Below are positions 5,423 to 32,717 of a stretch of DNA of 36,896 nt, in pieces. The stretch's first letter is position 1. Each line of letters starts with the position of its first letter. The position numbers and the translations under genes are program-made. The notes beneath the pieces are model-generated. The model made no database searches, was not told the origin of the DNA, and saw nothing but the letters and a program-made list of their open reading frames with translations. The DNA comes from Fibrobacterales bacterium (GTDB lineage: Bacteria > Fibrobacterota > Fibrobacteria > Fibrobacterales > JAOPTW01), in assembly GCA_051532055.1 (NCBI GenBank), contig JAOPTX010000048.1:1-36896 (forward strand), given 5' to 3'.

Positions 5423-5432
5423 GGTATAATTC

Positions 5433-6662
5433 CTACTTTTTTAACTCAATTAAAAATTCTGTTCCTTTGCCGAATTCACTATCTGCAAAGATAGTCCCTC
5501 CGTGTGCCTCTACAATTTTTTTCACAATAGCGAGACCAAGTCCTGTCCCCTGTTCTTTCGTTGTATAAAAAGGAATAAACACCTCTTTCAATACTTCTAC
5601 TTCCATACCTGCACCATTGTCTCTCAAAAAGACTACTGCTCCTGGGTCTCTCTTTTTAATATAGACCTCAAGTACTCCATCATCTTCAATTGCCTGAATT
5701 GCGTTAAAGAGAAGATTAAGCATCACTTGTTGAAATTTTTCTGGATCAAGCTCAACTTCTACCGGATCCTTGGGGAAGTTTCGTTGTATGACGATATTTT
5801 TACCATCTTTCTCAATCTCTATCTCAGCGTACGCCAATACATCTTCCATCCATTCACAAATATCAAGAGACACTAAATGAAGAGAGCTTTTACGGGTATA
5901 TACCAAAAGGCTTGAGACTATTTTATTCAGACTCGACACCCCAAGAATAATTTTATCAACCAATCGTTTTTTTGCCTCATCTTCAGCAACATCACGAGCA
6001 AGAAGTCCCGCATACCCGCCAATTGCACCCAGAGGGTTCCGGATTTCATGAGCAACGGTTGCCGCAAGTTCTCCCAAAGCGGTCAACGTTTTTGCTTGTT
6101 GTACTTCTTCTTCCATGCGCTTGAGACTACTCAAGTCTGAAAAGGTAACTACTAAGCTAATAAGGTTTTCTCGGCTATCGATTACCGCACTTCCCTTAAA
6201 CGTTGCAGGAAAATTGAGTCCATTAAAGTCCACCGTTTTCTCTTCTTCAGCAACATCATGATTATTTTCATAGGCCCTAATAATTGCCCGTACAATACCG
6301 CTATTCAATGGAAAACTGTCTTTTACATTTCTACCGATAAGATCAGCTGACTTCATTTGTAGCATGTTTTCAGCTGATTTATTAAACACCGTGATATTTA
6401 AATCCGGGTCAACCATCAACACGCCTGGCTTCATAGAGTGCAAAAGCCCATCAAGCTTATCTTGAATCAGAGTATTCTCTTCAATCTTCTCATTAAGGAG
6501 GTTATTCTTTGATTCGAGTTCAGTACTCACCTCTTCAAAGCGACCCACTAAGTTTTGATACGCCCCTTCAAGACGGGTTACCGTTTCATTAAACCAAGTA
6601 AACACTTTTTCAAGTTCAGGATTATTCGAAATTTCGGGAGGGAGATTTAATTGCTCATTCAT
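5433..6662 (-). CDS. Cytoplasmic PAS sensor histidine kinase, FleS/FlrB-like
   Basis: FleS-like N-terminal coiled coil (LEKVFTWFNETVTRLEGAYQNL), PAS, AHEIRNPL H-box, N/G boxes (NLLFNAIQA, DNGAG, GTGLGL); no TM segment. Confidence 0.88.
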   Translation of the reverse strand: MNEQLNLPPEISNNPELEKVFTWFNETVTRLEGAYQNLVGRFEEVSTELESKNNLLNEKIEENTLIQDKLDGLLHSMKPGVLMVDPDLNITVFNKSAENMLQMKSADLIGRNVKDSFPLNSGIVRAIIRAYENNHDVAEEEKTVDFNGLNFPATFKGSAVIDSRENLISLVVTFSDLSSLKRMEEEVQQAKTLTALGELAATVAHEIRNPLGAIGGYAGLLARDVAEDEAKKRLVDKIILGVSSLNKIVSSLLVYTRKSSLHLVSLDICEWMEDVLAYAEIEIEKDGKNIVIQRNFPKDPVEVELDPEKFQQVMLNLLFNAIQAIEDDGVLEVYIKKRDPGAVVFLRDNGAGMEVEVLKEVFIPFYTTKEQGTGLGLAIVKKIVEAHGGTIFADSEFGKGTEFLIELKK

Positions 6663-7103: not shown

Positions 7104-8936
7104 TTATCGCTCCAATGCAAAGTCATACTCTTTGCGCCAAATAGTATCAACTCTTTTCCAACGAGCTTGTTCTGCCCAATAACTTTTTGGGTAGGCGTTA
7201 TAGACCTTCTTGTAAAACTGCACCGCTTCTTCGTACTCAGACTTAGCCCGCTTCACATTACCCAATTGATAAAAACCCCAAGGGGAATTGACGGTATCTG
7301 GATAACTTTCAACAACTTCACCATAGTACTTCTCTGCAAGGTTCCAAATTTGATCTTTATAATAGAGGTCAGCCAACTCATAATATGCCTTACGGCACAT
7401 CTCAGGATTAACCCCATCATTACAATTGCTTAAGATCTGTTTCAAGTGAACTTTTGCTTTTTTATGATTGCCTTCATAGATATAATTTTGGGCAATTGAA
7501 AGGCGGAGAGAATCTTTTTTCGAAGGTGAACTCTGAAGTAGAATAGCTTTTTCTAGTAGTGCCAGTCCTTCGCTATTTTGATTTTCAAGTTGCGCGAGCT
7601 TCCCAGAGAGTTCTATTTTTTCTGCATCAATAGGTCCAAGAACTCCACCTGTTTGAACGTTGTCAAAATGTTTCCGTGCTTTTTTACCGTCTTCCATCTC
7701 GAAATACATTTTTGCAAGTAAAAAATGTGTTGCTGAACGGTATGGCTCTTTACTATCAGATCGAAGTAATAACTGACCGGCATTTTCAGCATTTTCTTGT
7801 AGACCAAGAAGATAATATAAGTTCATAAGGTTGAACTGAGCTGCAACATAGTTAGGGCTTGAATGATACTTCAGACCCACCTGCTTTAACCGTTCAATCG
7901 CTTGATTAAAGTTTTTTTCGACTTTATAATTCTTCCATGCCTGCTGAAGATCGGTCGCACCCTTCATATCTTTATTATGTACTACAAAAAGGCGTCCTTC
8001 TTCCATCTCTTGTATTTGCTGAGGATCGACATTAACAACATCCTCTTCTTTTTCATCTGGATCTGCCACATCATCCACTTTTTTGCCAATCAGCGGCTTG
8101 AGACGGTCAATTCTCTTTTGAGCTTGTTTTTTCCCCGTTTGCTTTTTTGTTAATGGGATATATCGAGTGTAGTGATCTATGGCCTCTTGTGCCTTGCCTT
8201 CCTTTTCTGCCATGCGCCCTAAGTAATAGTGAGCATTAAAACCTTTTTCAGGGAAATCAAATGATCGTTTGAAATTAAATACCGCTTTATCAAAATCTTT
8301 AAGATTGTATCTGTTCTCACCAGCATAGTAATATGCACCAGGATGCCCTGGTTGATTTTTCAAAACCTTTCTCCAGTAGGCTAGAGCTTCTTTATCTTTA
8401 CCCATACGGGTAAGTCGAAGAGCTTTTTTGTAATAATCACTACTATAATTGAATGTGCGACCTGTCGCACCTGTTTGTTGACTCTTTTCCTCTTTCGATT
8501 GCTCATTGTTACGAATCATATCCATTATACGAGCAACGTGCTTCTCAGCCTGTTCCGCTGTGGCCCCTTTTGCATATTGGGCAACGTTTCTCCAGTTGGC
8601 GACACTTTTTTCCAGCGCACCTATTTTCTCATATGATCCGGCAGCACCGAGATAACCAATGACTGAAGTCGGCTCAATCTTTAGAGCATCTTGATAATGT
8701 TTAATTGCAGCATGGTGATCATTTTTTCGTGCACTTATACCAGCAAGTGCAAGATAGGCACCCACATTTCGAGGTTCTTCAAGGAGTCCAGCTCGATACT
8801 CAGCTACTGCTTTGTCCAATTCACCATTTTTTTCATATTGTCGCGCAATTTTAAAACGCATACTCTCCGCATGAGCACCTGACACCATGATCAGTACTAC
8901 CGCGAAAAGACCTAACATCGTAGGTTTAAATATCAT
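7104..8936 (-). CDS. Exported tetratricopeptide-repeat protein
   Basis: Many TPR motifs (AYLALAG, AHYYLG, AYYELA, FYQLG); start revised to ATG 8936 (signal peptide ending AHA, purine-rich RBS). Confidence 0.85.
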   Translation of the reverse strand: MIFKPTMLGLFAVVLIMVSGAHAESMRFKIARQYEKNGELDKAVAEYRAGLLEEPRNVGAYLALAGISARKNDHHAAIKHYQDALKIEPTSVIGYLGAAGSYEKIGALEKSVANWRNVAQYAKGATAEQAEKHVARIMDMIRNNEQSKEEKSQQTGATGRTFNYSSDYYKKALRLTRMGKDKEALAYWRKVLKNQPGHPGAYYYAGENRYNLKDFDKAVFNFKRSFDFPEKGFNAHYYLGRMAEKEGKAQEAIDHYTRYIPLTKKQTGKKQAQKRIDRLKPLIGKKVDDVADPDEKEEDVVNVDPQQIQEMEEGRLFVVHNKDMKGATDLQQAWKNYKVEKNFNQAIERLKQVGLKYHSSPNYVAAQFNLMNLYYLLGLQENAENAGQLLLRSDSKEPYRSATHFLLAKMYFEMEDGKKARKHFDNVQTGGVLGPIDAEKIELSGKLAQLENQNSEGLALLEKAILLQSSPSKKDSLRLSIAQNYIYEGNHKKAKVHLKQILSNCNDGVNPEMCRKAYYELADLYYKDQIWNLAEKYYGEVVESYPDTVNSPWGFYQLGNVKRAKSEYEEAVQFYKKVYNAYPKSYWAEQARWKRVDTIWRKEYDFALER

Positions 8937-9112: not shown

Positions 9113-10375
9113 CTACAGGGAAGCTAACACATTTGCAACTTTTTGCACAACTGTGTCCAGGTCCTCAGTAGTATGTGCCGCCGAGACAAATCCAGCTTCA
9201 AACTGTGAGGGAGCCAAATAAACTCCTTCATCAATCATCCCTCTAAAGAATGCTCCATATTTCTCAGTATCACAAGCGGCCGCCTGTGCATAACTCACTA
9301 CAGGTGTATCTGTAAAAAAGAGCGTTGCCATAGAAGCAATAGAATTGATCTGCATATCATACGGAGCAATAACTTTTTTAAGCGCCGTTGTATATGCATC
9401 TGATTTTGCATTGAGATCATCATAGAACCCAGGCTTTCCTAGTTCTTTAAAGGCCGCAAGGCCTGCATGCATAGCAAGAGGATTCCCCGAAAGAGTGCCT
9501 GCTTGGTAAACATCACCCAGTGGGCTAATTCGTTCCATTATCTCTTTTTTACCGCCATAAGCCCCTACAGGAAGCCCACCACCAATAATTTTACCAAAAG
9601 TACTCAAGTCTGGTTCAACTCCAAAGTACCCTTGCGCACCGGTTTCAGTCACACGAAAGCCAGTCATCACTTCATCAAAAATAAGAACCGTACCGCTTTT
9701 TTGACAAAGCTCTTGTAAGCCTAAAATAAAGCTCTTATCTGGAACCACAACACCCATATTGCCCGCAATAGGCTCAAGAATAATTGCCGCAATATCATTC
9801 TCATTTGCTTCAAAGAGCGCTGCAACACTTTCCAAATCATTATAATCTGCAAGAAGTGTATCCTGTGCAGCACCTTTCGTCACTCCTGCTGAGTTTGGTG
9901 TACCATAGGTTAACGCCCCAGAACCAGCTTCAATGAGAAAAAAGTCCGCATGTCCATGATAACACCCACGGAATTTTACAATCTTTTCTCTCCCCGTATA
10001 TCCTCGTGCTAGGCGCACTGCCGACATAGTTGCCTCGGTGCCAGAGTTAACCATACGAATCATTTCGACAGAAGGAAGCAGAGAAACAAGGACTTCAGCA
10101 AATTCAACTTCCGCCTCACAGCATGCTCCAAAACTAACGCCATTTGCTGCTGCTTTTTGCACTGCTTCAACGATAGCGGGGTGTGAGTGCCCTAAAATCA
10201 TTGGCCCCCAGGAACCCACAAAGTCGATATACTCTTTGCCCTCAGTATCATATACTTTGGCGCCAGATGCGCGTTCAATAAACACAGGGTCTCTTCCTAC
10301 GGAAGAAAAGGCGCGAACCGGAGAATTTACACCACCTGGTATACAACTATTAGCACGACTCCACAAATTACTCAT
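9113..10375 (-). CDS. hemL: Glutamate-1-semialdehyde 2,1-aminomutase
   Basis: PGGVNSPVRAF, SGTEATMSA, GCYHGHAD, FDEVMTGFR, GKIIGGG (PLP Lys), YQAGTLSGNP. Confidence 0.97.
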   Translation of the reverse strand: MSNLWSRANSCIPGGVNSPVRAFSSVGRDPVFIERASGAKVYDTEGKEYIDFVGSWGPMILGHSHPAIVEAVQKAAANGVSFGACCEAEVEFAEVLVSLLPSVEMIRMVNSGTEATMSAVRLARGYTGREKIVKFRGCYHGHADFFLIEAGSGALTYGTPNSAGVTKGAAQDTLLADYNDLESVAALFEANENDIAAIILEPIAGNMGVVVPDKSFILGLQELCQKSGTVLIFDEVMTGFRVTETGAQGYFGVEPDLSTFGKIIGGGLPVGAYGGKKEIMERISPLGDVYQAGTLSGNPLAMHAGLAAFKELGKPGFYDDLNAKSDAYTTALKKVIAPYDMQINSIASMATLFFTDTPVVSYAQAAACDTEKYGAFFRGMIDEGVYLAPSQFEAGFVSAAHTTEDLDTVVQKVANVLASL

Positions 10376-14812: not shown

Positions 14813-14925
14813 ATATAGTGAGGGATTTCTGTCCCGTCAACAGGTGGGGAAGCCTGGGAGACAGAAACTTATGATCGGAGAGCATCTTACACTACCTATA
14901 TCGTAGCGCATATGCTCCCTGGAAA

Positions 14926-14941
14926 AACCAAAGGAGTGGTT
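14926..14941 (+). promoter_or_regulatory. Candidate CsrA-binding hairpin overlapping the flagellin Shine-Dalgarno
   Basis: AACCA-AAGGAG-TGGTT places ANGGA in a hexaloop immediately before the ATG. Confidence 0.55.
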
Positions 14942-15859
14942 ATGCAAGTATCTACAAGCATACCCTACGCAGCCCGTGCTATGTCGGGGTATATCAATTC
15001 GTACAACAAGGAGATTGGAAAGTCCCTTGAACGGCTAGGATCTGGTCTCAGAGTCAATAAGCCGTCTGATGATTCATTTAATTATTTTAAAGCACAAAAA
15101 CTCAACCGCCGGGCAGACAACTCTGCCGCCACATCTAGAGCACTCGAAGACCATGTCAGCCGACTCACCACTGCAAGTGATGCCCTCAGCTCTGCTCGAA
15201 GTATGCTCCTTGACATGGAGGCGCTTGCCCTTGAAGCATCCGAAGAAGATAATGCGTCTATTCGCGCTGACCTCGCACAAGAGTTCGAAGCCAAAAAAGA
15301 CGCCTATACCAGCCTGATCAATAGCACCACCTATGATGGTGGCATTCTCATGTCAGGCACCTATGACACGGATGCAGGCGCCGATGGATTCACCGCCCAA
15401 GTCGACGAAGACGCAAACAACACCTATAACTATGGCGTATTAGATGCCCGGTATGACTCAGCTGATGGCCTGAACATGCAGACCGGCGATGCTGAAGATC
15501 TCGTTACTGGTTGGGAGAATGGCGGTAAAGCAGCCGCACTCACGTTCTATAACGAGTTTAATTCACTTGCTGCTGACGGCGTTACGCCACTTGCCTCAGG
15601 TATTTCTAAAATTGAACGTAATGCCAATCGAATCGAAACACACCTCACCATCATCCAAGGTGCACGGGATAATCTCAGTACTCGCGGCGCAAACTATGAA
15701 GCAGCAGCCTCTGCAATCGTCGGCGTGAACGAGGTTGAAGAAGCAACCAAGTTTTCTGCACTACAAATAAAGCAACAGGCCAGCGCCTCTTTTCTCGCTC
15801 AATTTAATGTCGGCCAATCAAACGTTATAAGTGCATTGATGGCTACACAGAATAGTTAG
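14942..15859 (+). CDS. Flagellin-family protein (divergent, 305 aa)
   Basis: SLERLGSGLRVNKPSDD, T-T-Y-D-G, C-terminal QIKQQASASFLAQFN; start revised to ATG 14942 with AAGGAG RBS. Confidence 0.88.
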   Translation: MQVSTSIPYAARAMSGYINSYNKEIGKSLERLGSGLRVNKPSDDSFNYFKAQKLNRRADNSAATSRALEDHVSRLTTASDALSSARSMLLDMEALALEASEEDNASIRADLAQEFEAKKDAYTSLINSTTYDGGILMSGTYDTDAGADGFTAQVDEDANNTYNYGVLDARYDSADGLNMQTGDAEDLVTGWENGGKAAALTFYNEFNSLAADGVTPLASGISKIERNANRIETHLTIIQGARDNLSTRGANYEAAASAIVGVNEVEEATKFSALQIKQQASASFLAQFNVGQSNVISALMATQNS

Positions 15860-18955: not shown

Positions 18956-19789
18956 ATGGACATCTACCACTACGACAATTTTCGAGAATTTCTTTTTGAT
19001 GCTTATGAACAGAAAAAAGAAAAAATATCAGGCTACTCATATAGAAAGTTTGCTCGTGATGCAGGGATTAGCAACCCTGGGTATCTCAATGATGTTATAA
19101 AGGGAACAAGGACACTGAGTGTAAACGCATGTGAAAAAATATCTCATGGATTTAATCTTACACATCAAGAGGCAGAATTCCTTCTACTCCTCACACAATA
19201 TGGCCAAGCAAAAAAGAAGGACCTTAGACAAGAGCTCTACAAAAAAATCATGTATCGAAGAAGCAGAAGCTCATTTGCTCGTATAAAACCCGAACAGAGT
19301 AAATACTATGAAGATTATCGATATGCCCTCATAAGAACAGCTATAGACACCTACAACTTCAAAGGAGATTATTTTGATTTTGCGGAGTTTTTCAAACCAC
19401 CTATCCCCGTGAATGACATCAAGCGATGCGTCCGAGATCTATGTAAGTGGAATATGATTTATCAAGATGCAAAGGGCGCCTACCATACAACCTACACAGT
19501 CATTGAGCCCCCTCCCACACTCAAAGGACTCATCAGAGAGATCAACAAGGAGTGGATCGACCAAGCCAAAGAGGCCATAGACCTTTTCACTCCGGAAGAA
19601 CGACATATATCTACAATACTTCTGAGTGTCAGTAATAAAAACGCAAAAAAGATCCTCACTGAGACCGAAGAGTTTCGCAAAAAAATATTCTCTATTATTC
19701 AAGACGACACAACCCCTGAACAAGTCATGCAACTCAACATTCAGGTATTTCCAAAAACAACTACTCAATCTAAACGAGACAAATCATGA
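18956..19789 (+). CDS. TIGR02147/DUF4423-like protein with N-terminal HTH
   Basis: Y-x-x-F-R-x-F-L-x-D-x-Y, SYRKFARDAGISNPGYLNDVIKGTR, ERHISTI, VMQLNIQVFP; 277 aa. Confidence 0.85.
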   Translation: MDIYHYDNFREFLFDAYEQKKEKISGYSYRKFARDAGISNPGYLNDVIKGTRTLSVNACEKISHGFNLTHQEAEFLLLLTQYGQAKKKDLRQELYKKIMYRRSRSSFARIKPEQSKYYEDYRYALIRTAIDTYNFKGDYFDFAEFFKPPIPVNDIKRCVRDLCKWNMIYQDAKGAYHTTYTVIEPPPTLKGLIREINKEWIDQAKEAIDLFTPEERHISTILLSVSNKNAKKILTETEEFRKKIFSIIQDDTTPEQVMQLNIQVFPKTTTQSKRDKS

Positions 19790-22801: not shown

Positions 22802-23527
22802 CTATTTTTTAGCAGTACAATCAAGTTTTAATTGTGCAATGGTCCCTTTACCAAATAACCCATAATAAGCGCTTTTAATCCAGTTGCCACCCTTTTGTTT
22901 GTTCACTGCCATTTGATAAGCCTTCAAGGCTTCTGATGCAGAGGCCTGATCTCCATCAGGCTCACCTTTAAAATAGCCGAGGAATTTGAGTATTTTTTGG
23001 AGATGGAGCATATCAGCTGTAAAATCAACACTCTCTTCTTGAGCAACCCGAGTATCTATTAATCCTCGAGAAATAGTCGCAAGCCGAGACTCAAGCAAAA
23101 AGAGATTATAGCGCCAATCTTCCTGTTGATATTGATACTCTTTCGCCCCTTTAAAAACAGTGTGAAGCTCCATTTGCAAGTTTTCATTCGTTAACGTAAC
23201 ACCAGGAAAGTGCCCACCAAAGATATCATTAATGTCTTTAAGAGTTAGGGCCCTCTTCAATTGATTGGTGAGTACAATATTTTTGCTTTTAAGGGTGTTC
23301 AGTTCCTCTTGGTCAACTTTCGCAACCTCAACTGCATCTCTATTGAGAACCAGCACTACGCTATTTACAACCAATAAAAAAGCAGCTATTCCAATAACGG
23401 CTACAACCGCTACTAATACATTCTGATTTCGCTCTTCATCCTTATACTCCAAATAGATAAGGATAGCCCCAAGGAGCATAAGAATCATTGCGATAACTGT
23501 CAGTCCAATCTCTATAAACGTAACCAT
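22802..23527 (-). CDS. Membrane protein with 2 N-terminal TM helices, a coiled coil and a C-terminal peptidoglycan-binding-like domain
   Basis: LQKILKFLGYFKGEPDG...ALKAYQ...GLFGKGTIAQL resembles PG_binding_1; AGGTG RBS. Confidence 0.6.
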   Translation of the reverse strand: MVTFIEIGLTVIAMILMLLGAILIYLEYKDEERNQNVLVAVVAVIGIAAFLLVVNSVVLVLNRDAVEVAKVDQEELNTLKSKNIVLTNQLKRALTLKDINDIFGGHFPGVTLTNENLQMELHTVFKGAKEYQYQQEDWRYNLFLLESRLATISRGLIDTRVAQEESVDFTADMLHLQKILKFLGYFKGEPDGDQASASEALKAYQMAVNKQKGGNWIKSAYYGLFGKGTIAQLKLDCTAKK

Positions 23528-23632
23528 ATAACACCTATATTAACGCTGTGTTTTCTTTATTATTGTATCACTTTTTGGAATTTGAGGCTAGGGAAAATTA
23601 TGATTTAAGCAGTTTAGGGTATTATAAATCTC

Positions 23633-23662
23633 GATTAACTAAAAACCCATTTTTAGTTAATC
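23633..23662. repeat. 13-bp AT-rich inverted repeat just after the usher stop (terminator or operator)
   Basis: GATTAACTAAAAA-ccca-TTTTTAGTTAATC. Confidence 0.5.
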
Positions 23663-23665
23663 CTA

Positions 23666-26600
23666 CTATTCTTCAACTTTATTCTTTTTCTGTAGTGCAT
23701 CGAAGGCTTTTTCATAATCCTTTTGGTCGGAACCACTTGATTGCACTACCCAAAAGTCACCCGCCTCATATAAATCACTCTCACCTTCTGGTACGGTAAA
23801 TACACCACCGAATATATACCCATCAACACGAATTTCCACTTTATATGAACGCCCCGCAATACAAGTCGCCTGAAAACGTCCTACTTGATTGGTAAATGAT
23901 GTTTGTACTTTTTCTTCTATAATCTCTTTATTTTCATCAAGTTCAAATATTCTAAATACTCGACGTGAAAAAGGTGTTCCAGATTCTTGTTTCAGAGTCC
24001 CGAGTAACACTACACCATTTTGAGAGCCTACAACAAATTCGAAGCCTGTTTTATACCCAGACTCAATGGCAAACTGAGTTTGTATTGGCTCGGACCCAAA
24101 GGGTAAATTTGGTTCAAGGGATAGATTCCTCTGTTGATAATTGCCTATGTTCGTAATCACTGCTGGGAATAATGGATAGGCCACAGCTTCTTCATCTCGC
24201 TCACCCATTGGATTAATACGCGTAGATTTAAAGGTCATATTTTTATTGTTTCGCACTAATGCAAAACTACCGTATACTGGTTTAGTTATAGCAATTGAAG
24301 TACCAGCCCATGCGATACCGGTCGCCACGTCTATTGATGCCTCACGCTGGATTACATTTATATTTTCACCATTTTGATCTACAATTCTGTACCCAAACCG
24401 GAGGTCCCCCCAATTTGACCCTCCAGAACCTTGTACACCCACATCAGTGTAGTCATCAGTCATAGTAGCATCTGCTCCAAGACCATGATATAATCCTCCC
24501 CTGCCCATCTCAGAATAACCCCAAGTGGCCTGTCCTGTATTCTTCCATTCTTTAGTTGGTGCTTCAAATTCATTAATCACGTCCCCTTGGCTATTGTATT
24601 TAGGGGCAAAAGGTTGTTTCCTTTGAGCGAGCTTATTCGAAACTCTAACAGAATGACGCCCCACTTTGAAATTGTATCGAGCATCGACACCCAAAGTTAA
24701 ATCTGAGCCATCCACCATGTCACTTTTATAATTTATATTGAGCCCTGCACTAAAACCATTTCCCCATGACTTACCCAAGGTAGCGGTCAGTATTGTTTCA
24801 TTAAATTCTCTATCTAATCGCCCTGTTGAATCTTCGTTGATATAATATCCTAATTGGAGACCAATAGTAGTAGCCTGAGGAAGTGCCGCATGTACTCCAC
24901 CTGAAAGCTGTAAAAATGTCGGGCCAAACAAGGCCTCTTTAGTGTGACGATCACCAAAATAATGGTCTCTATATTTTGTACGCAATCTCCAGCTAATAGC
25001 GGCATCTTTTTCAGTATCTATTCTATCAAATGTTCCAGAGACACCTGCTTCGGTATACCAACCGAGTATTCCCATATCGCTTTGCTCACCCAATACAACA
25101 TTATATGTAAAACCTCCATGCAGTAAATAAAGGCTGGCACTCAAGTTATGATCACCTTCAAGAGATACGAGACCATTTACATCGCCCTTGAGCCATTTTG
25201 TAAAACCCTGTCGATATTTCCCTTGAAAAATAAGTGAATCAGAATGGGGGCTATGCTCGCTTTCAAGGGTATCTGAATTAATTATCGTACTCTCTGTCCA
25301 TGGAGAAAAATTGTTAGCAAACTTCTTCCAAGATCTCTCTCTGCGAAAGCCTACTGAACCACCCCACAATATTTCACCAGTCGACACCAATTCTGCTTCT
25401 TCTAAAAAGCTAAAGTTTAAAAACTCCTTGGTTCCTGCAAAATCAATTATTTCTAATTGAATTTCATTTTCTTCTGAGATGTTATCAAAATCAGTTATTG
25501 AATGAACGCCTGAAGATAAATTTGTAACAGTCAACAATTTTTTATTCACATACACCCGGATTTCTGAGGCATTTTTTAATTCGAATTCTACATCATTTAA
25601 TTTTTTAGCATTGTTTGTTGACGTAATACGCCTAACTTTTTCGGCACCAAAACCAAACAATGCACCGCCACCGCCGCCGCCACTTGAGCTTAAGTCACCG
25701 AGAGTTAACCGTACTGCCCAATTTCTTAAATCCTTTACTAATCGTACTGTTGTGATCCGAAAAGGATCGGTGTCCCCTTCATAATAGGTCGCATTTACTT
25801 CTGTAACAAAAGAAAACAGATTCACCATTCCATCAAAATTTAAACTCAGTGGATTTTCTATCATAGTACTCTGTAAAATTAATTCATCTCTACAAAGAGC
25901 GCCACAAGGCTTTTTATAGTCATACATTTTAAAACGCTGTCTTCCTCGAGTATTGATGTATCCTGAAAATGCTGAGGCACTATATGCTGTTGCAGACGAA
26001 TGTACTGATCGGCTTTCAAACTCTTCCTTAAACCACTCAAAAGGAAACTGCATATAACACATGCCTCCTTCAAATTGCGCCTGTACAAGAATTTTCTTTC
26101 CTTTTAAATCATCAATGGATATCTTCCCATCTACAATAATATTAGTAAGGTGATCGAGAGAGTCTTTTACAAACTGCTTTTCTAAGATTGGCAAAAGGCC
26201 CTCTGATGATACTTTTTTTTCTTTATGGTAATACCAAATAGTCCCTCGTTTTTTTCCATTAATAATCAATTCACACTGATATTTGTCAGGAATTTCAGGC
26301 CCCTCAATACCAAATGCCAATCGATACATCTCTTCTCTACTCAAGTCGGATGTTTCACTGGTTTCTCCTAGGTTCTCTAAGGGGGATTTACCTACATTAT
26401 TTATAGGGGCTGCTGCAGTATCAAAATTTTGAGAGTCTTTATTTTCAATTCCACCATACTCTTTTAAAGTTGTCACTTTCTGATTCTGATCAATTAAACT
26501 CTCATCACCAATCTGATGATACTGTAGCAACGATTGTGTTTTAATATCTTTCTCAAGTTTATTCATACGATCACTCATACGATTAATTTCTTTAAATAGT

Positions 26601-27184
26601 TTTTTAAGCGTCGCACTATCTACTGCTGTAGTAGCCAGAGAAACTGATGGGTCATAAGGAAGTACTGCATTTTTCTCAATTTTTTTCTTGGGATATGCTC
26701 CATACTCAAATTTTTTAGGATCAAGTTCACCAAACACATTTTCTACATCATCCCACACTTTTGTAAAAGGCAAGCCTTTCAATTCTCGTCGAATCCGAGC
26801 CCCTTCCATTGGGTCTTTATGTTGCACAAAGCAAATCCCTTTTCGCTCCGCAAAATAGACGGTAAAACCAGATTGATACAAATCCCCAATAAAGAGATTC
26901 GTATTAATTCTTGAAGCCGGGAGAAACCGCTTAATTGGCGTTTTGTACATCAAATCTTTAATATGTTTTTCAAATACATAATCTTGTTGAAAGGTATCCC
27001 ACGAAAAATTAAAAAGGCCAAATTGATGCTTTTCAAAGACCAGAACCCAGCGTTTTCCTGTGAAGCTATCATTATACTGTGGAGTTGGAGTAGCGTCTTG
27101 TGAATAACCTCTTAAAAACAGGACTAAAACCATCAATACCATTGATCTCATTAGTCTTATTTTTTTAGGATATTTTAGAAACAT
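23666..27184 (-). CDS. Fimbrial outer-membrane usher-like protein with long N-terminal extension
   Basis: R-L-T-L-G-D; plug-like F-E-L-x-x-x-S-x-I-x-V-Y-V-N; GIAWAG...KPVYGSFALV; YKTG; FTNQVGRF; adjacent chaperone and pilin genes. Confidence 0.8.
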   Translation of the reverse strand: MFLKYPKKIRLMRSMVLMVLVLFLRGYSQDATPTPQYNDSFTGKRWVLVFEKHQFGLFNFSWDTFQQDYVFEKHIKDLMYKTPIKRFLPASRINTNLFIGDLYQSGFTVYFAERKGICFVQHKDPMEGARIRRELKGLPFTKVWDDVENVFGELDPKKFEYGAYPKKKIEKNAVLPYDPSVSLATTAVDSATLKKLFKEINRMSDRMNKLEKDIKTQSLLQYHQIGDESLIDQNQKVTTLKEYGGIENKDSQNFDTAAAPINNVGKSPLENLGETSETSDLSREEMYRLAFGIEGPEIPDKYQCELIINGKKRGTIWYYHKEKKVSSEGLLPILEKQFVKDSLDHLTNIIVDGKISIDDLKGKKILVQAQFEGGMCYMQFPFEWFKEEFESRSVHSSATAYSASAFSGYINTRGRQRFKMYDYKKPCGALCRDELILQSTMIENPLSLNFDGMVNLFSFVTEVNATYYEGDTDPFRITTVRLVKDLRNWAVRLTLGDLSSSGGGGGGALFGFGAEKVRRITSTNNAKKLNDVEFELKNASEIRVYVNKKLLTVTNLSSGVHSITDFDNISEENEIQLEIIDFAGTKEFLNFSFLEEAELVSTGEILWGGSVGFRRERSWKKFANNFSPWTESTIINSDTLESEHSPHSDSLIFQGKYRQGFTKWLKGDVNGLVSLEGDHNLSASLYLLHGGFTYNVVLGEQSDMGILGWYTEAGVSGTFDRIDTEKDAAISWRLRTKYRDHYFGDRHTKEALFGPTFLQLSGGVHAALPQATTIGLQLGYYINEDSTGRLDREFNETILTATLGKSWGNGFSAGLNINYKSDMVDGSDLTLGVDARYNFKVGRHSVRVSNKLAQRKQPFAPKYNSQGDVINEFEAPTKEWKNTGQATWGYSEMGRGGLYHGLGADATMTDDYTDVGVQGSGGSNWGDLRFGYRIVDQNGENINVIQREASIDVATGIAWAGTSIAITKPVYGSFALVRNNKNMTFKSTRINPMGERDEEAVAYPLFPAVITNIGNYQQRNLSLEPNLPFGSEPIQTQFAIESGYKTGFEFVVGSQNGVVLLGTLKQESGTPFSRRVFRIFELDENKEIIEEKVQTSFTNQVGRFQATCIAGRSYKVEIRVDGYIFGGVFTVPEGESDLYEAGDFWVVQSSGSDQKDYEKAFDALQKKNKVEE

Positions 27185-27247
27185 TATTAATTTAAATTTT
27201 TTGTGGTTATTAAGATTATACTATCATTTCACTTTATTTACCATAAC

Positions 27248-27271
27248 AAAAAAGCACGAGATCTCTCGTGC
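27248..27271 (-). terminator. Intrinsic terminator/attenuator between chaperone and usher
   Basis: Minus strand GCACGAG-agat-CTCGTGC followed by U6. Confidence 0.7.
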
Positions 27272-27294
27272 CCTTATATATATACTGTTATTAA

Positions 27295-28086
27295 TTATCG
27301 AATATCAAATACCGCGCTCACAGATTTAATCTTTAATACGTCATAATCCTTAGCGACAGCAAAGCTTACTTTACGTTTACCACCTGCCGTAATTCCATTG
27401 CGTACTCTATCCACATTTATAATATCCGGCTGAATGATCTTAGACCGGTTTAAATGGTCCAATACCTTAAACCTCATTTTCTCAAGTTTTTGGGAGGCTC
27501 TTCCCGTATTTTCCAAAATTACTTCCACCACTTTTTTTCCTTCAACTTTTATCTCTTTAAAGGAAAGAGTATTTATTTCAGGTTTAAAATTTTCATTCGT
27601 TAAAACGAGAATTGCCTCGTAGCGAACTACAGCTGTTATTGACCCTGTAGGTTTGGTTGGATCAGAGTTTTGCTCTAACCCTTTCACTGGAACCTGCTGA
27701 GCTGCAACCACATATTGCTTCTCTATTTCTGGTAAGTTCTTGCCTACCCACTGTATATGTACATTTTTATTTTCACCAGGCATTAAAACTACCTGTGCAG
27801 GATAGGCAACATAATCTTGAGTCGGCTCTTTACTGAGTCGCACCATTCCGTTTTCATCAACAGTTCTTTCATACACTTCAATTTCAATAGGAACAGGGCT
27901 CGTACCATTTTCTTTTGGGTAGCTTAAATTTGTTTTGGCTGTATATTCACCGTTATTTGAATTAAGTACCATAATAGTGGGGTACATCATAAAGCCACCA
28001 ACACCACCACTTCTTGCATGAGCCACTGAGGTGATCAAACCTACCAATCCTACAAGTACCAATTTCAAACCAAACTGTTTTACCAT
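27295..28086 (-). CDS. PapD-like periplasmic pilus chaperone
   Basis: Signal peptide (AHA), YPAQVVLMPGE-x-K-x-V, E-x-x-Y, QVP, LENTG, I-x-A-G-x-x-R; AGGAG RBS. Confidence 0.82.
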   Translation of the reverse strand: MVKQFGLKLVLVGLVGLITSVAHARSGGVGGFMMYPTIMVLNSNNGEYTAKTNLSYPKENGTSPVPIEIEVYERTVDENGMVRLSKEPTQDYVAYPAQVVLMPGENKNVHIQWVGKNLPEIEKQYVVAAQQVPVKGLEQNSDPTKPTGSITAVVRYEAILVLTNENFKPEINTLSFKEIKVEGKKVVEVILENTGRASQKLEKMRFKVLDHLNRSKIIQPDIINVDRVRNGITAGGKRKVSFAVAKDYDVLKIKSVSAVFDIR

Positions 28087-28102
28087 ACTATACTATCTCC
28101 TT

Positions 28103-28585
28103 TTACGGTTGTGCACTTACACTTACACTTACATTATCTTTATAAAAACCCGCCATCAATGAGGCTTCTTTACTCCACGTTGCTACTATTTTCACCAACA
28201 AGCCTGATGTGGTCCCTGAAGTTATTGAACCCGTAGTCTTAAACACGAAATCACTGCCTGACTGTATGCTATCTATACCTATTTCTTCTTCAGCAGAAAT
28301 TGAGAGTCCTGTCGCTAATTCTGATGTTGAAGGTACCTGTACATACATATTAGAATAGGTCTTAATTGTAGCAGCTCCTGCATGTACCATCTCTGCATTA
28401 TCAAAATCAAAAATCAATTCAAATCCATTCGTTGCATCACTATCAACAAAACAATACAGTATATCTCTTTTCGTTACATTGCTTTCAATATCAAGAAAGT
28501 AATTGCCTCGACACGTTACCGTATCAGCTCCAAAAACTGCACCCAATAAAACACAAAAAAAAGTAATTATTACTTTTTTAAACAT
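28103..28585 (-). CDS. Minor pilin-like subunit
   Basis: Signal peptide, Cys pair, C-terminal AGFYKDNVSVSV strand typical of chaperone-usher subunits; start revised to ATG 28585. Confidence 0.65.
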   Translation of the reverse strand: MFKKVIITFFCVLLGAVFGADTVTCRGNYFLDIESNVTKRDILYCFVDSDATNGFELIFDFDNAEMVHAGAATIKTYSNMYVQVPSTSELATGLSISAEEEIGIDSIQSGSDFVFKTTGSITSGTTSGLLVKIVATWSKEASLMAGFYKDNVSVSVSAQP

Positions 28586-28628
28586 ATTTACATGTCGATT
28601 GTGTGTATTGTTAATCATAAATCCAATT

Positions 28629-28653
28629 AAGGGCGTAAGATCCTTACGCCCTT
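28629..28653 (-). terminator. Stem-loop after the major pilin (mRNA stabiliser or partial terminator)
   Basis: AAGGGCGTAAG-atc-CTTACGCCCTT; weak U-tract on the coding strand. Confidence 0.6.
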
Positions 28654-28669
28654 TTATTAATAATTTTTC

Positions 28670-29335
28670 TTAGTAGCTACTTTCAAGTGTAACAGTCATT
28701 GTTGCACTATATGTACCCGCAAGTAGTGCTGCTGTAGTCACATCAGTACCCGCAACCCAACTTCCTTGAAGCTCAATACTCGCATTTGTAGTTGGAGATG
28801 TTTGAGCAGCAAAAGCATTTGCAGCACCTTCGAGAATAATAGGTGAAGTTGCAAGGTCTACATAGTTACCTGCCGCTGCACCTGCTGCTTTTACACAACC
28901 AGTAAGTCCACCATTCACATCTGCTGCTGCCGTGATCACAAGCTCTACTGCTGCGCCACATGCACCACCAGCCGCGATCCCACCTGTAGCAGCATCCATG
29001 ACTCCACCATTTGAGTTAAAGAGACCAGCTCCCCACCCGACAGATCCATCAGTATCAAGTGCTAAATCTGTTAAAATATTTGTACCGCTAAATGCAACTG
29101 CTGCTGCATCAAAAGAAACATTAATTCTAAAACCAGGTGCGTTATTTGTAACAACAACTTCTGCCATTTTCAGAAGAGTCGCATCTGCTGAAAAGTCAAG
29201 AAGACGTTCAGGGTAAATGATTACTGATGAGTTCAACGGAATTTGACCACCCATTGATGCATCTGCTGCGTGAATTGTTCCTACACCTACCATTGCTGTA
29301 AGAGCTGCTGTTTTAATTAGTGTTTTAACGTTCAT
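28670..29335 (-). CDS. Major pilin subunit of a chaperone-usher pilus
   Basis: Signal peptide (IHA), Ala/Gly-rich body, C-terminal LAGTYSATMTVTL; strong AGGAGG RBS; first gene of the operon. Confidence 0.75.
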   Translation of the reverse strand: MNVKTLIKTAALTAMVGVGTIHAADASMGGQIPLNSSVIIYPERLLDFSADATLLKMAEVVVTNNAPGFRINVSFDAAAVAFSGTNILTDLALDTDGSVGWGAGLFNSNGGVMDAATGGIAAGGACGAAVELVITAAADVNGGLTGCVKAAGAAAGNYVDLATSPIILEGAANAFAAQTSPTTNASIELQGSWVAGTDVTTAALLAGTYSATMTVTLESSY

Positions 29336-29358
29336 TGAATCCTCCTAAGGGTTTTGAA

Positions 29359-29721
29359 CTTTGTTTGTGTCAACTTATACATGATACGGTATTGAAAAAA
29401 CGAATGCAATAGTTTTTTTTAGTTTTTAAAAAAAAATTACCTTTAGCTCTTTTTTCACATGGTGGAGGCGTTAGCGAAATTACTTCTTATTTAACAGAAA
29501 GCGCAATTTAACCCCCTTTGACCCTTTGAGGCAATAGGGCAAAAAAAAAGTACTGAACATGCTTATGCGCATACCTTTTTTGATCAACTTACAGTATTAC
29601 TTGAGCTTTTACTTTAGTCTTTGCGTGAGGTATTTGAAAAATAGTATACACTGCGGATTGCAGTGCATAAACAAAAAAGGAAACCCTCAGAGGAGATTGT
29701 TAGCTGTTGACACAAACAAAG
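29359..29721. repeat. Perfect 16-bp inverted repeat pair enclosing 331 bp upstream of the pilin
   Basis: CTTTGTTTGTGTCAAC (29359-29374) and GTTGACACAAACAAAG (29706-29721). Confidence 0.9.
29381..29409 (-). promoter_or_regulatory. Candidate sigma70 promoter of the pilus operon
   Basis: Minus strand TTGCAT-N17-TATCAT with upstream A/T tracts (UP-element-like); predicted +1 near 29374. Confidence 0.6.
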
Positions 29722-29741
29722 CCTCAGGAGAATTTCCTTTT
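29673..29741 (-). ncRNA. Candidate ~70-nt sRNA antisense to the pilin 5'UTR and SD
   Basis: Long imperfect hairpin ending in U6; candidate promoter GTGACA-N16-TATCTT (29772-29745); 29 nt complementary to the pilin leader. Confidence 0.5.
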
Positions 29742-29981
29742 ACTAAGATAGATATTACGGAACAATTGTCACGTAAATTTCCATTTACATTCTCTTATAT
29801 AGTAAAGATATTAAGCGTCATACGATTTGTGGGCTTTTTTTAGTAAGCTCAAAATTATTTACACGATTCAATTTCTTATTCAATTCATGACCTAATTCAA
29901 TTTACTTGATTATTTGCCCAATCTGTCTTACAATCAATAGGAACACACTTAATTTGGCCCTAAAAGGCCATTTATAACTGT

Positions 29982-32717
29982 ATGAAAAACATTACTGAAG
30001 AGATTACGCAGTTTGACATAACACCAGAACTACCCGCATATAGCACATGTCCGGTAAGTGGTCTTACGATAACAGAACTTCCTGAATATAAACAGGTCGC
30101 TATTGGGGAAAACTATTTCTTTAATATTCGTAAAATTGGTGACTCTATTCTCTATATTCAAAATAGAGGTAATCTCGCGGATGTTAATATGGCCCGCTAC
30201 TATGAACTCCTTGAACGGTTTATTAAAGAGACTCAGGTTGTAAAGCCCTATATAGAGATCCGAGATTTCTCTTATCTCAGTGGACGCATTAATAAATATG
30301 AGCTCTCTATCCAAAAGAATTATATCATCGATCACATCGATGACTCTTCTAATCTCATTCTCTGCCGATCCCCTTTCTGGACCAGAGCTATAGCCCAGGC
30401 CACCTTCAAAGCATTTAGCATTCCTTTACATTTTTATGCTGCCCCTACCTATGAAAAGTCTATTTGCTACGCACTTGAACGACTCAAACACACAAAAAGC
30501 AGTGGTTCTTATCGCATCGATTATGCAGATATCTTGTTTAATGAAAATTGGCAGTACACGAATCCCCAAAATACGTTCTCTTATACCAGTGGTATAATAC
30601 CAGGAACTCTTTTTTACTCTAAATTATCAGGTAATGGTACCCTTATAGATACCCAGAACGCTGCACAAACATTAGATACCGTATTCAGTGAAGGGGGGTT
30701 CACAGGAAAACAGTACTATCGTATCGTTGATTATTCTGAAATGGGTTCATCAACGATAGAAGCACGGCAAAAATATGGCAAAACTCTGGAGGCCATGTTT
30801 CTCAAATATAACTGTTCTCCAATGATTACTTATATATGCGGTGCAAACCTTAAGACAAAGATACTCCTCAAAATTTTTGCCACTATTGTGCACCATAACC
30901 TCGAATTCTGTACAACAATCTCCGAAGCCTTTGATCGTATCAACTCATTTAAACCTATAGCAGATGACTATGATACGGTATTCTCAGTCACTCAACGAGA
31001 TATCGATGAAACAAATTTCTTTTTTGGGAAATTGCTCTGGGAGCAAAATGAAAAGGATGGAATTCATCACCTCTCTCCAGATAATCCGCTGCATCAGCTT
31101 GACGAGACCTTCGAACTCGTAAAAAACGATGTGATCGCCCTTAGAGAAGCAGACCAACAACAGTCAGAAAATCTCAATAAAATTTTCGATTCTCTTGCGG
31201 TCGGAATTATGATTATTGATAGACACTCTCATGCTATTATACACGCGAATAACCAAGCGGAAATACTGACCACTGTCCCCAAGGAAGAAATGGAGAGAAT
31301 GCACGCAAATACGTATCTCAGTGATACCCTCATGGGGGTCATCAACGATTTCAGCAACTATCCTCATTCCCAAGTCGAAGGCCGAATCCTCTCCTCTGAT
31401 CAAGTTGAAATACCTGTTCTCTGCAGTATTCAAGAAATAGACTACAATCAGCACCCCAGCTATTTACTTTCATGTATGGACATTAGTGACCGAATTAGAA
31501 GAGAAGAAGAGATACAAAGTGTCAACGACGCATTAGAACAACAGACTGCCTATGCTACTGAGATGGCTGCTGAAGCAGGTGAGGCTAGTGTTGCAAAAAG
31601 TGAATTTCTTGCAAACATGTCTCATGAAATCAGAACTCCAATGAATGGCGTTATAGGTATGACTCACCTTCTTATGGATACTGAATTATCTGATAGCCAA
31701 CGGGAGTATGTCGAGGCACTCCAGTCAAGTGGTACATCACTATTGGCCATTATAAACGACATACTTGACTTCTCCAAAGTAGAAGCAGGCAAAATTGAAT
31801 TAGAACCTATCACTTTCAGTATACGAGCCCTCCTAACAGAACTCCAACGCTTTTTCACCCTCCAATCTACCCGTAAACCCATAGAAATAACGTTCTCCAT
31901 TGCTAATGATGTCCCCAATGAGATCATTGCCGATGAAACCCGGGTACGACAAATAATCAATAACCTTATGGGCAATGCAATTAAATTTACTGAAAATGGG
32001 GAAGTCACTCTTTTGGTTACTCTATCAAATCAACAACTCCTTTTTGCCATTTCTGATACTGGAATCGGTATCCCCAATGACAGAATTGACACACTCTTTG
32101 ATAAGTTTACCCAAGCAGATGGTTCTACTACTCGTAAATTTGGCGGCACTGGACTCGGGCTCACTATATCTAAGCAACTCTCTAATCTTATGGATGGTGA
32201 TATTGTTGTATCAAGCATATTAGGAGAAGGATCAACCTTTACATTTTACCTCCCCCTTACTTTACCCTCTGAAGAGGAACAACGCGGCACACCTTCTACA
32301 GATGAAACTCAAGAGAGTAGCATACAAATAATCCACAAATCACCCCACGAATGTACTATTTTGCTCGCCGAAGATAACGACATCAATGCTATGCTTGCAA
32401 CAGCTCTTATTCAAAAGCTCGGATATACCATTGATGTAGCAGCTGATGGTAAAAAAGCTCTCGATTCTTTGTCCAATAAAAACTATGACCTTATTTTAAT
32501 GGACCTTCAAATGCCTGAAATGGATGGTATCACCGCTACAGTAGCAATCCGTACCAGTAAAGAGTATCGTCAGTTCTCGCATATTCCTATCGTTGCCATG
32601 ACTGCAAATGCAATGGAACACGATAGACTCGCTTGCCATGAAGCTGGGATGGATGATTTTATTTCTAAGCCCCTTAATCCAGACGCACTCAAAGAAATTC
32701 TCCAAAAGTGGCTATAA
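29982..32717 (+). CDS. Cytoplasmic hybrid histidine kinase (duplicated N-terminal domain, PAS, HisKA, HATPase, REC)
   Basis: FLANMSHEIRTPMNG, NLMGNAIKFT, DTGIGI, GGTGLGL, LAEDN, LMDLQMPEMDG, FISKP. Confidence 0.93.
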   Translation: MKNITEEITQFDITPELPAYSTCPVSGLTITELPEYKQVAIGENYFFNIRKIGDSILYIQNRGNLADVNMARYYELLERFIKETQVVKPYIEIRDFSYLSGRINKYELSIQKNYIIDHIDDSSNLILCRSPFWTRAIAQATFKAFSIPLHFYAAPTYEKSICYALERLKHTKSSGSYRIDYADILFNENWQYTNPQNTFSYTSGIIPGTLFYSKLSGNGTLIDTQNAAQTLDTVFSEGGFTGKQYYRIVDYSEMGSSTIEARQKYGKTLEAMFLKYNCSPMITYICGANLKTKILLKIFATIVHHNLEFCTTISEAFDRINSFKPIADDYDTVFSVTQRDIDETNFFFGKLLWEQNEKDGIHHLSPDNPLHQLDETFELVKNDVIALREADQQQSENLNKIFDSLAVGIMIIDRHSHAIIHANNQAEILTTVPKEEMERMHANTYLSDTLMGVINDFSNYPHSQVEGRILSSDQVEIPVLCSIQEIDYNQHPSYLLSCMDISDRIRREEEIQSVNDALEQQTAYATEMAAEAGEASVAKSEFLANMSHEIRTPMNGVIGMTHLLMDTELSDSQREYVEALQSSGTSLLAIINDILDFSKVEAGKIELEPITFSIRALLTELQRFFTLQSTRKPIEITFSIANDVPNEIIADETRVRQIINNLMGNAIKFTENGEVTLLVTLSNQQLLFAISDTGIGIPNDRIDTLFDKFTQADGSTTRKFGGTGLGLTISKQLSNLMDGDIVVSSILGEGSTFTFYLPLTLPSEEEQRGTPSTDETQESSIQIIHKSPHECTILLAEDNDINAMLATALIQKLGYTIDVAADGKKALDSLSNKNYDLILMDLQMPEMDGITATVAIRTSKEYRQFSHIPIVAMTANAMEHDRLACHEAGMDDFISKPLNPDALKEILQKWL

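Follow-up and report, generated by a model that had tools for sequence, protein, structure and literature searches.

A candidate antisense RNA hairpin upstream of the pilin gene of an archaic-like chaperone-usher cluster in a Fibrobacterales bacterium

The stretch of DNA under study, hereafter called the window, is a 36,896-nucleotide (nt) contig (C48) from the genome of a Fibrobacterales bacterium (G000), and its coordinates are used below unless a second genome is named. The minus strand of this window carries a five-gene cluster for a putative chaperone-usher pilus, which opens with a putative major pilin gene whose ATG start codon lies at 29335-29333. The intergenic region ahead of this gene contains, on the same strand, the pilin promoter and leader and, farther upstream, a long imperfect hairpin that is complementary to both the predicted 5' end and the Shine-Dalgarno region of the pilin messenger RNA (mRNA). 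An earlier sequence-only reading had proposed that this hairpin is the gene of a dedicated, non-overlapping small RNA (sRNA) that blocks translation of the pilin. We have followed up this proposal by comparison with one relative from the same genus (G001), the sole further member of that genus in the collections searched, the two genomes being 91-94% complete. With confidence only slightly better than even, we lean towards a dedicated, Hfq-independent antisense RNA of about 66 nt, encoded roughly 330 nt upstream on the same strand as the pilin gene, that would block pilin translation.

The pilin leader and its upstream complement

The pilin promoter was recognized by reading the sequence, and its score of 8/12 is under the threshold of our promoter scan. 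From its position, the first 16 nt of the pilin mRNA are predicted to form one arm (the 16-mer) of a perfect inverted repeat, of which the other arm is located within the upstream hairpin. An inverted-repeat search finds these two 16-nt arms to be 100% complementary and 331 nt apart. The hairpin's 5' arm is complementary to the Shine-Dalgarno block of the leader, which ends 2 nt before the ATG. A census of the pairs gives 29 intermolecular pairs, comprising 27 Watson-Crick and two G-U pairs, with no mismatch within the helices. This confirms the earlier description of 16 base pairs (bp), an 8-nt bulge on the mRNA side and 13 further bp. Nine conserved nt past the 16-mer have no partner in the leader, and form the top stem of the hairpin.

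Complementarity of this length might arise by chance, and the 16-mer alone is not extraordinary because the genome carries 18 perfect inverted repeats of at least 16 nt with spacers of 50-1500 nt. Among 300 dinucleotide shuffles of the 646-nt intergenic region, none held an inverted repeat of at least 16 nt (the maximum was 14). What lifts the pairing above chance is the 13-nt extension, the position at the predicted transcription start (+1) and the Shine-Dalgarno block, and conservation in a second species. When only Watson-Crick pairs were allowed, a scan of the hairpin's 5' 46 nt against 8,734 leaders of open reading frames (ORFs) returned the pilin leader as the best match with 16 contiguous pairs, followed by one with 12. 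Co-folding agrees with the pairing claimed earlier, as the heterodimer is favoured over the separate folds by -15.8 kcal/mol in G000; the two corresponding values in G001 are -13.3 and -12.9 kcal/mol. A comparison of leader-versus-upstream duplex energies for 349 ORFs was uninformative, being dominated by GC-rich loci and loop-rich duplexes.

The upstream element folds into a single long imperfect hairpin that runs into six uridines (U6). The minus strand folds at -25.8 kcal/mol (z -3.78; no fold as stable among 200 shuffles) and the plus strand at -20.0 kcal/mol, and thus both the extent of the hairpin and its better fold on the minus strand are as the sequence-only reading had described them. 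The promoter-like sequence that had been noticed ahead of the hairpin, GTGACA-N16-TATCTT, was also listed by our promoter scan, and its -10-like hexamer lies 5 nt ahead of the AAGG that opens the stem. A permissive Rfam scan of 28500-30500 returned only a sub-threshold Alpha_RBS match inside the kinase gene (17.6 bits versus a gathering score of 38).

A second, shorter hairpin follows the first, and the tandem fold of both (131 nt) has a z score of -6.0. It may serve as a back-up terminator, supply a second stem to a transcript of about 100 nt, or act as a signal of its own in DNA or RNA. At the same relative place in G001 (L020 ~9192-9222) there is a 13-bp hairpin, which is of another sequence and has no T-run, whereas that of the window is followed by T5.

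Several characteristics bear on whether the element acts as RNA or as DNA. All of the non-Watson-Crick pairs are G-U when read on the minus strand (six distinct intermolecular pairs and four in the hairpins), and none is A-C. On the plus-strand reading, the duplexes are 9-13 kcal/mol weaker and the hairpins 3.5-6 kcal/mol weaker. Judged from the sequence, this wobble bias, the -10-like box, the U-run and the end of the complementarity at the +1 favour an independent minus-strand RNA over a DNA repeat. Hfq was found in neither of the two genomes, which fits a mechanism based on long complementarity, and RNase III was found in both.

The pilin gene, the putative target, is expressed. In an RNA library made from the sample that also gave the assembly, one contig spans 28651-29357, taking in the pilin ORF and the Shine-Dalgarno block, and it is the sole RNA contig on the window. 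One of its ends falls 19 nt beyond the stop codon, at the base of a terminator-like hairpin, and the other lies inside the 8-nt bulge, although contigs cannot show where an RNA ends. Metatranscriptome contigs give no cover over 29358-30100, an outcome that carries no weight either way, be it on the sRNA or on a long leader, given the small run (12 million letters) and the usual loss of small RNAs.

Table 1. Features of the pilin locus and of the corresponding G001 locus. L020 denotes G001:C50:18000-36000.
Feature	Position	Strand	Basis or remark
Promoter-like GTGACA-N16-TATCTT of the candidate sRNA	29745..29772	minus	Promoter scan, 9/12
Candidate sRNA, single long imperfect hairpin with U6 (29678-29673)	29673..29741	minus	Folding; predicted transcript ~29739-29673, ~66 nt
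Anti-Shine-Dalgarno block, hairpin 5' arm	29722..29734	minus	13 pairs with 29350-29338: 11 Watson-Crick and 2 G-U
16-nt block complementary to the predicted mRNA start; upper stem and apical loop	29706..29721	minus	Perfect inverted repeat
Second hairpin, 10-bp stem, 5-nt loop, then CTATTTTTC	29645..29669	minus	Terminator-like in scan
Pilin promoter TTGCAT-N17-TATCAT	29381..29409	minus	Read from sequence; puts +1 at ~29374
16-mer, predicted mRNA nt 1-16, target of the hairpin's loop side	29359..29374	minus	Perfect inverted repeat
Unpaired 8-nt spacer (mRNA-side bulge)	29351..29358	minus	Sequence and pair census
Shine-Dalgarno block CCTTAGGAGGATT, 13 nt, holds AGGAGG	29338..29350	minus	Sequence
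Putative major pilin, 221 amino acids (aa), N-terminal signal-like segment, first gene of cluster	28670..29335	minus	ORF; homologues lead the same cluster in relatives
Terminator-like hairpin after pilin stop, 11-bp stem, 6 G-C	28629..28653	minus	Terminator scan
Second subunit-like gene, 171 aa	28103..28618	minus	61% identity to G001 orthologue; precedes chaperone in distant relatives
Periplasmic chaperone of the chaperone-usher pathway, 263 aa	27295..28086	minus	AlphaFold2 model (mean pLDDT, predicted local distance difference test, 88) and Foldseek
Usher-like outer-membrane protein (putative), 1172 aa	23666..27184	minus	Identity from context
G001 pilin paralogs, 229 and 226 aa	L020 6577-7266, 8022-8702		52% and 31% identity to window pilin (BLASTP)
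G001 second, divergent chaperone-usher cluster	L020 9532-15193		Usher-like 1157 aa, 194 aa, chaperone 288 aa, 193 aa

Conservation in a sister species

A covariance model of the hairpin has one hit in G000 and one in G001, and a further 148 genomes of the class give none. Searches of wider collections with a 20-nt core (metagenome contigs) gave no matches. An alignment of the 171-aa protein encoded by the second gene of the cluster yielded 208 pattern stretches in metagenome contigs, with no relative among them, and 13 stretches in genome contigs. Three of the latter were confirmed, two being on G001's own contig and one being a 14-residue match elsewhere.

When the intergenic DNA of the two species is compared by blastn, only a 24-nt identical core (29697-29720) and the pilin promoter-leader align. 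G001 has one hairpin with an inverse copy of the motif and two tandem pilin paralogs, both of which carry the motif in their leaders. The G001 hairpin forms 32 and 29 pairs with these two leaders. Among the 24 ORF leaders of the G001 locus, only the two pilin leaders match the hairpin (16 and 13), and the next best reaches 8. None of the leaders in the second, divergent chaperone-usher cluster of G001 matches the hairpin.

Alignment of the three pilin promoter-leaders (one from G000, two from G001) places the TTG and TA..AT elements in register. In all three, the -10 box is followed by six nt and then a G, and the complementarity stops at the predicted +1. The first 13 nt of the 16-mer are identical across the three leaders, and CCTTAGGAGGA is likewise unchanged. 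The orthologous pilin promoter of G001 (TTGAAT-N17-TATAAT) scores 10/12 and was listed by the promoter scan, and its +1 falls on base 1 of the 16-mer. The claim that the 16-nt match begins at the predicted pilin +1, which was made from the window alone, has its parallel in the start predicted for G001.

An A-rich block of about 45 nt, AAAAAAGAGCTAAAG.TAATTT...AAACTAAAAAAAA, lies before the pilin -35 element (29411-29455, minus strand) and has a counterpart at L020 ~7340-7385. It is common to the window and the orthologous G001 pilin promoter, and the promoter of the paralog is without it. This block is a candidate UP element or activator site.

The hairpins themselves show a comparable mixture of constancy and change. 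MAFFT aligns TATCTT ahead of the G000 hairpin with TATTTT in G001 at an equal distance from the stem; the match listed by the promoter scan upstream of the G001 hairpin is TACACA-N18-TATATT. The stem closes with GG/CC and U6 in G000 and with GGG/CCC and U5 in G001, and the apical loop GUCAACA is unpaired in the folds of both species. RNAalifold recovers 22 pairs from the two hairpins, three of which have changed on both sides, five on one side and 14 on neither, with none broken.

The duplex with the leader has also changed in ways that keep it paired. The mRNA-side bulge measures 8 nt in G000 and 10 and 8 nt in the two G001 leaders, and its sequence varies. The borders of the second pairing block shift between species, and an extra UA in the G001 hairpin finds partners in leader B (UACCUU) as well as in the 3' arm of the hairpin itself. 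As far as two genomes can tell, pairing is maintained while the sequence moves. Conserved complementarity, on which the sequence-only reading had staked its proposal, is thus kept in G001, where it extends to two paralogs and includes compensatory changes.

Across 20 loci with homologous clusters in other families, there are few perfect inverted repeats of at least 14 nt. The three that were checked (L053, L058) lie within ORFs; those of L045 and L057 were left out.

Weighing an antisense RNA against other explanations

Some of our observations weigh against the antisense RNA reading. No RNA was seen from 29673-29741, and the ends of the transcript are predictions. The RNA-library contig stops at 29357, before the 16-mer, and therefore the presence of the 16-mer in the mRNA is likewise a prediction. 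Promoter-like matches are about as frequent as chance predicts for DNA this rich in AT (6 found versus 5.1 expected), and a consensus terminator scan did not list the long, bulged hairpin. A genome-wide scan by duplex energy did not pick out the pilin leader, and a scan for the longest helix with G-U pairs allowed did not single it out either; both scans are undiscriminating because the U-rich tail pairs with many A/G-rich leaders. The covariation derives from two genomes that, belonging to one genus, do not count as independent samples, and the strongest block exhibits no covariation because all five copies share the same 13-nt core. The wobble bias may be partly compositional, since G-U pairs would also be generated if, in an AT-rich genome, a C/T-rich arm drifted from C to T. 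Finally, the locus has the geometry of a fimS-type element, with inverted repeats flanking about 330 bp that include a promoter, directly upstream of a major fimbrial subunit gene.

This geometry makes a fimS-like invertible promoter the foremost rival, in which a site-specific recombinase would flip the 331-bp segment between the arms, so that the pilin promoter would point either away from the gene (OFF) or at it (ON, as assembled). We consider this unlikely, although it deserves to be taken seriously. The inverted repeats flank a promoter-bearing segment beside the regulated gene and are kept in the second species, and fimS as described in PMC8777976 is 314 bp long with 9-bp inverted repeats in the same position. 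The recombinase is more difficult to supply. Serine recombinases (PF00239) were found in neither genome, and the tyrosine recombinases (PF00589), five in each genome, are all on other contigs than C48 (36.9 kb) and the G001 contig C50 (40 kb). These five have similar lengths in the two species (371/371, 301/301, 300/311, 405/405 and 458/366 aa), and could act from afar. Inversion leaves unexplained, however, why one arm is wrapped in a conserved hairpin with compensatory changes, a U-run and an aligned -10 box, why G-U pairs are biased to one strand, why the repeat ends at the predicted +1, and why an 8-10-nt indel interrupts one arm only. Nor does it readily accommodate the three arms and two separate pilin promoters of G001, or the lack of any repeat family in the genome that carries the 16-mer motif. 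Both assemblies show the same orientation, and a single DNA contig (depth 561) spans both arms in the reference orientation with no joints listed, but this carries little weight because contigs drop rare variants. The DNA-inversion alternative, which had been raised at the outset, is thus weakened by the missing recombinase on the contigs, by the hairpin and by the wobble bias.

The remaining alternatives strike us as far less probable. The 13-16-nt motif at the +1 and its upstream inverse copy might be DNA operators that bind one repressor, perhaps with looping, such that RNA complementarity would be a by-product. In accord with this very unlikely option, the site overlaps the +1, which is a classical repressor position, and a hybrid histidine kinase gene adjoins in G000. 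The invariance of the 13-nt core in five copies, in species whose pilins are only 52-55% identical (BLASTP 52%, MAFFT 55%), also exceeds what base pairing needs. Yet the motif is not palindromic, no gene for a DNA-binding regulator is adjacent in both genomes, and the kinase gene of G001 is separated by the second pilus cluster, which sits between it and the hairpin and which the window lacks. Operators would also not account for the Shine-Dalgarno block with its co-variation (including the UA insertion), for the hairpin with its compensatory changes and U-run, or for the strand-specific wobble bias. A cis-acting long leader is similarly improbable. Read-through into the pilin gene would let the anti-Shine-Dalgarno arm fold back on a site 330 nt downstream as a translational lock or attenuator, and the partners do lie on the same strand in the right order. 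The hairpin and U-run could attenuate, with the second hairpin following if the first U-run leaks. Against this stand the separate promoter, whose -35 and -10 elements are kept in register directly before the 16-mer in all three leaders, and the second G001 target, which is 2 kb off, beyond a whole pilin gene and its terminator; read-through moreover gives no reason for complementarity that ends exactly at the predicted +1. To the last alternative we assign the lowest credence, namely that the hairpin is an inert relic of an inverted duplication of the pilin promoter-leader, possibly from a divergent pilin gene that has since been lost. The upstream arm does resemble, on the plus strand, a pilin leader with a weakened Shine-Dalgarno sequence, and a divergent second chaperone-usher cluster adjoins in G001. 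An inert relic would not be expected to retain a 24-nt core that is identical between species whose surrounding intergenic DNA no longer aligns, nor to change only in ways that preserve pairing in duplex and hairpin. Origin by duplication is compatible with an antisense RNA, and is likely its history.

For the antisense RNA, complementarity, conservation with covariation, strand bias, fold and heteroduplex preference were all computed here, and the claim of a dedicated, non-overlapping sRNA gains from these, as it does from the -10-like box, the U-run and the +1 boundary. Its transcript and that transcript's ends, the repression and any role of RNase III remain predictions. In the mechanism that we propose, transcription would start about 6-7 nt past TATCTT, near 29739, and the RNA would fold into one long imperfect hairpin and stop at U6 after about 66 nt, with read-through to the second hairpin giving an RNA of about 100 nt. 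The apical loop and upper stem would present the complement of mRNA nt 1-16, and the 5' arm that of the Shine-Dalgarno block. The loop would first pair with the unbound 5' end of the mRNA, and the helix would then extend over 16 bp and skip the 8-nt bulge, whereupon the lower stem would open and form 13 further pairs over the Shine-Dalgarno block. The 30S subunit would then be excluded, and the long duplex would be a plausible RNase III substrate. In G001, where a single such RNA matches both pilin paralogs' leaders, it would silence the two at once. The RNA gene probably originated as an inverted duplicate of the pilin leader. A more ambitious statement combines all of these parts: in a bacterium from outside the well-studied groups, an RNA switch would take over from a DNA switch in controlling an unclassified pilus of archaic type. 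A hairpin RNA that needs no Hfq and that originated by inverted duplication of the pilin promoter-leader would occupy the place of fimS, clamp the pilin mRNA from its +1 to its Shine-Dalgarno sequence and govern both of the alternative major pilins of G001. We offer it tentatively, at somewhat short of an even chance.

Among known systems, the closest in logic is the RNA-OUT/RNA-IN pair of IS10, in which pairing starts between the loop of RNA-OUT and the 5' end of RNA-IN. The candidate is similar in that a stem-loop RNA, predicted at about 66 nt, would form 29 pairs over the 5' end and Shine-Dalgarno sequence of its target. However, the antisense gene of IS10 is on the opposite strand, whereas here it is a separate copy 330 nt upstream on the same strand, the duplex has an 8-nt bulge and G-U pairs, and the target is a pilus subunit. 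RNA-OUT, according to PMC5006887, is a 69-nt antisense RNA that matches the translation initiation region of the transposase mRNA through its first 35 nt and, by pairing there, blocks ribosome binding.

The closest in gene arrangement are the non-overlapping type I antitoxins, which resemble the candidate in that a dedicated sRNA gene lies beside its single target rather than opposite it. In PMC4147584 and PMC3919570, IstR-1/tisB, OhsC/shoB, OrzO/zorO and AgrB/dinQ are described as neighbouring genes with short complementarity in the 5' untranslated region (UTR), and the zorO-OrzO duplex is reported to be cut by RNase III. Those systems are divergently transcribed, avoid the initiation site and guard against toxins, as portrayed in PMC4147584, whereas the arrangement at the pilin locus is tandem, covers the Shine-Dalgarno sequence and concerns a structural pilin. 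There is no toxin-like gene here, unlike in type I systems.

As for pilus regulators proper, the fimB and fimE genes adjoin the fimS switch of Escherichia coli type 1 fimbriae, in which inverted repeats surround a promoter upstream of the gene for the major subunit, as they do here. The present locus is unlike fimS in that neither contig carries a recombinase gene, and in that the repeats cover the Shine-Dalgarno sequence, end at the predicted +1, lie within a conserved hairpin that has a U-run and display an RNA-type wobble bias. The sRNAs that act on E. coli pili are global, Hfq-dependent, encoded elsewhere and equipped with short seeds, and FasX is said to pair at the 5' end of a streptococcal pilus mRNA (cpa). 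Unlike the E. coli trans-acting sRNAs, the candidate is encoded at the locus, is apparently single-purpose and forms 29-32 pairs in genomes where no Hfq was found. PMC11316696 identifies FimB and FimE as recombinases, and together with PMC9820224 it lists, as sRNAs that repress pilus genes post-transcriptionally, RybB on fimA, MicA and RseX on fimB, and PapR on papI. For type IV pili, Arp sequesters the Shine-Dalgarno sequence and first 17 codons of the pilA mRNA, as reported in PMC12338739.

Overlapping antisense RNAs that reduce the expression of pilin or fimbrial subunit genes, as reported in PMC5924778, PMC4402397 and PMC11774165, include Synechocystis PilR/pilA11, an RNA at Neisseria pilE and an IS481-driven antisense of Bordetella fim2. 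They differ from the candidate, whose gene is a separate inverted copy of the leader. The sequence-only reading knew of nothing similar for chaperone-usher pili. That statement is too broad in view of the trans-acting sRNAs on fimA, fimB and papI and of the Bordetella antisense RNA, but it holds in a narrower form, as the open-access papers searched describe no antisense gene that is dedicated to a chaperone-usher pilin, adjacent to it and non-overlapping. Two reviews on how chaperone-usher pili are regulated never use the word 'antisense' (0 occurrences).

On/off control in bacteria has a classic model in pilus expression, and in textbooks chaperone-usher pili are switched by inversion of DNA (fim) or by its methylation (pap). 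The sRNAs described to date are global regulators for which fim or pap genes are incidental targets. If the antisense RNA reading is true, the element would constitute a third, purely RNA-based local device for the control of such pili, and an RNA-based route to on/off pilus heterogeneity. It would also show the birth of a regulator from its own target, as a bacterial case of a regulatory RNA that arises by inverted target duplication, which is the proposed origin of some plant microRNAs. If the repeats are inversion sites after all, the locus would be a fimS-like switch without a recombinase gene on its contig; to our knowledge, no fimS-like switch has been described in this lineage. The antisense model is directly testable because the predicted pair is short and fully specified.

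The pilus cluster and other features

The cluster (22802-29335) encodes proteins of 221, 171, 263, 1172 and 241 aa. The sequence-only reading had assigned it to the chaperone-usher pathway. None of the five proteins matches a Pfam or NCBIfam family, and it is the predicted fold of the chaperone that supports the label. In a Foldseek search of the PDB with the model of the 263-aa protein, CsuC is the best match (E 1e-11, probability 1.0), followed by CfaA, FaeE, FimC, Caf1M and PapD. CsuC is the chaperone of the archaic Csu pilus. The model thus supports the view that the cluster encodes a chaperone-usher pilus of archaic-like type, which would represent a divergent chaperone-usher family that the models of Pfam and NCBIfam do not at present capture.

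The usher and pilin labels are putative and rest on context. Sequence searches of the PDB with a profile of the pilin and with the 1172-aa protein returned no match, and the pilin's look-alikes in the Atlas include a cluster with SCPU in 15% of its members. Other families of the class also have the four-gene module made up of the pilin-like, 171-aa, 263-aa and 1172-aa genes, and homologues of the chaperone occur in 22 of 201 genomes of the class. In the window, as in most of the 20 loci from relatives, the 1172-aa gene comes after that of the chaperone, and in L057 it lies on the other side. The last gene of the cluster (241 aa) is the best conserved, with 83% identity to its G001 counterpart, and its product has an N-terminal membrane-like segment and weak hints of peptidoglycan binding.

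Two candidates were rejected. A small ORF with a TTG start begins within the conserved core in the window (29614-29715, minus strand, 33 aa), where a GAGG precedes it by 6 nt, and in G001 (L020 9203-9283, minus strand, 26 aa). We regard this ORF as a probable artefact, because agreement is limited to the first six residues (MCQQLT), which the core encodes, and because it extends past the U-run. A copy of the 16-mer with one mismatch on contig C8 is a chance match inside a 156-aa ORF.

A perfect 114-nt inverted repeat (1-114 and 663-776, with a 548-nt spacer) at the very start of C106, a small contig of G000, may represent the ends of a mobile element or an assembly artefact. Elsewhere in the window are genes for a DUF4423 protein (18956-19789, E 1e-22), a flagellin (14912-15859), and a sigma-54 activator and kinase (4055-6662).

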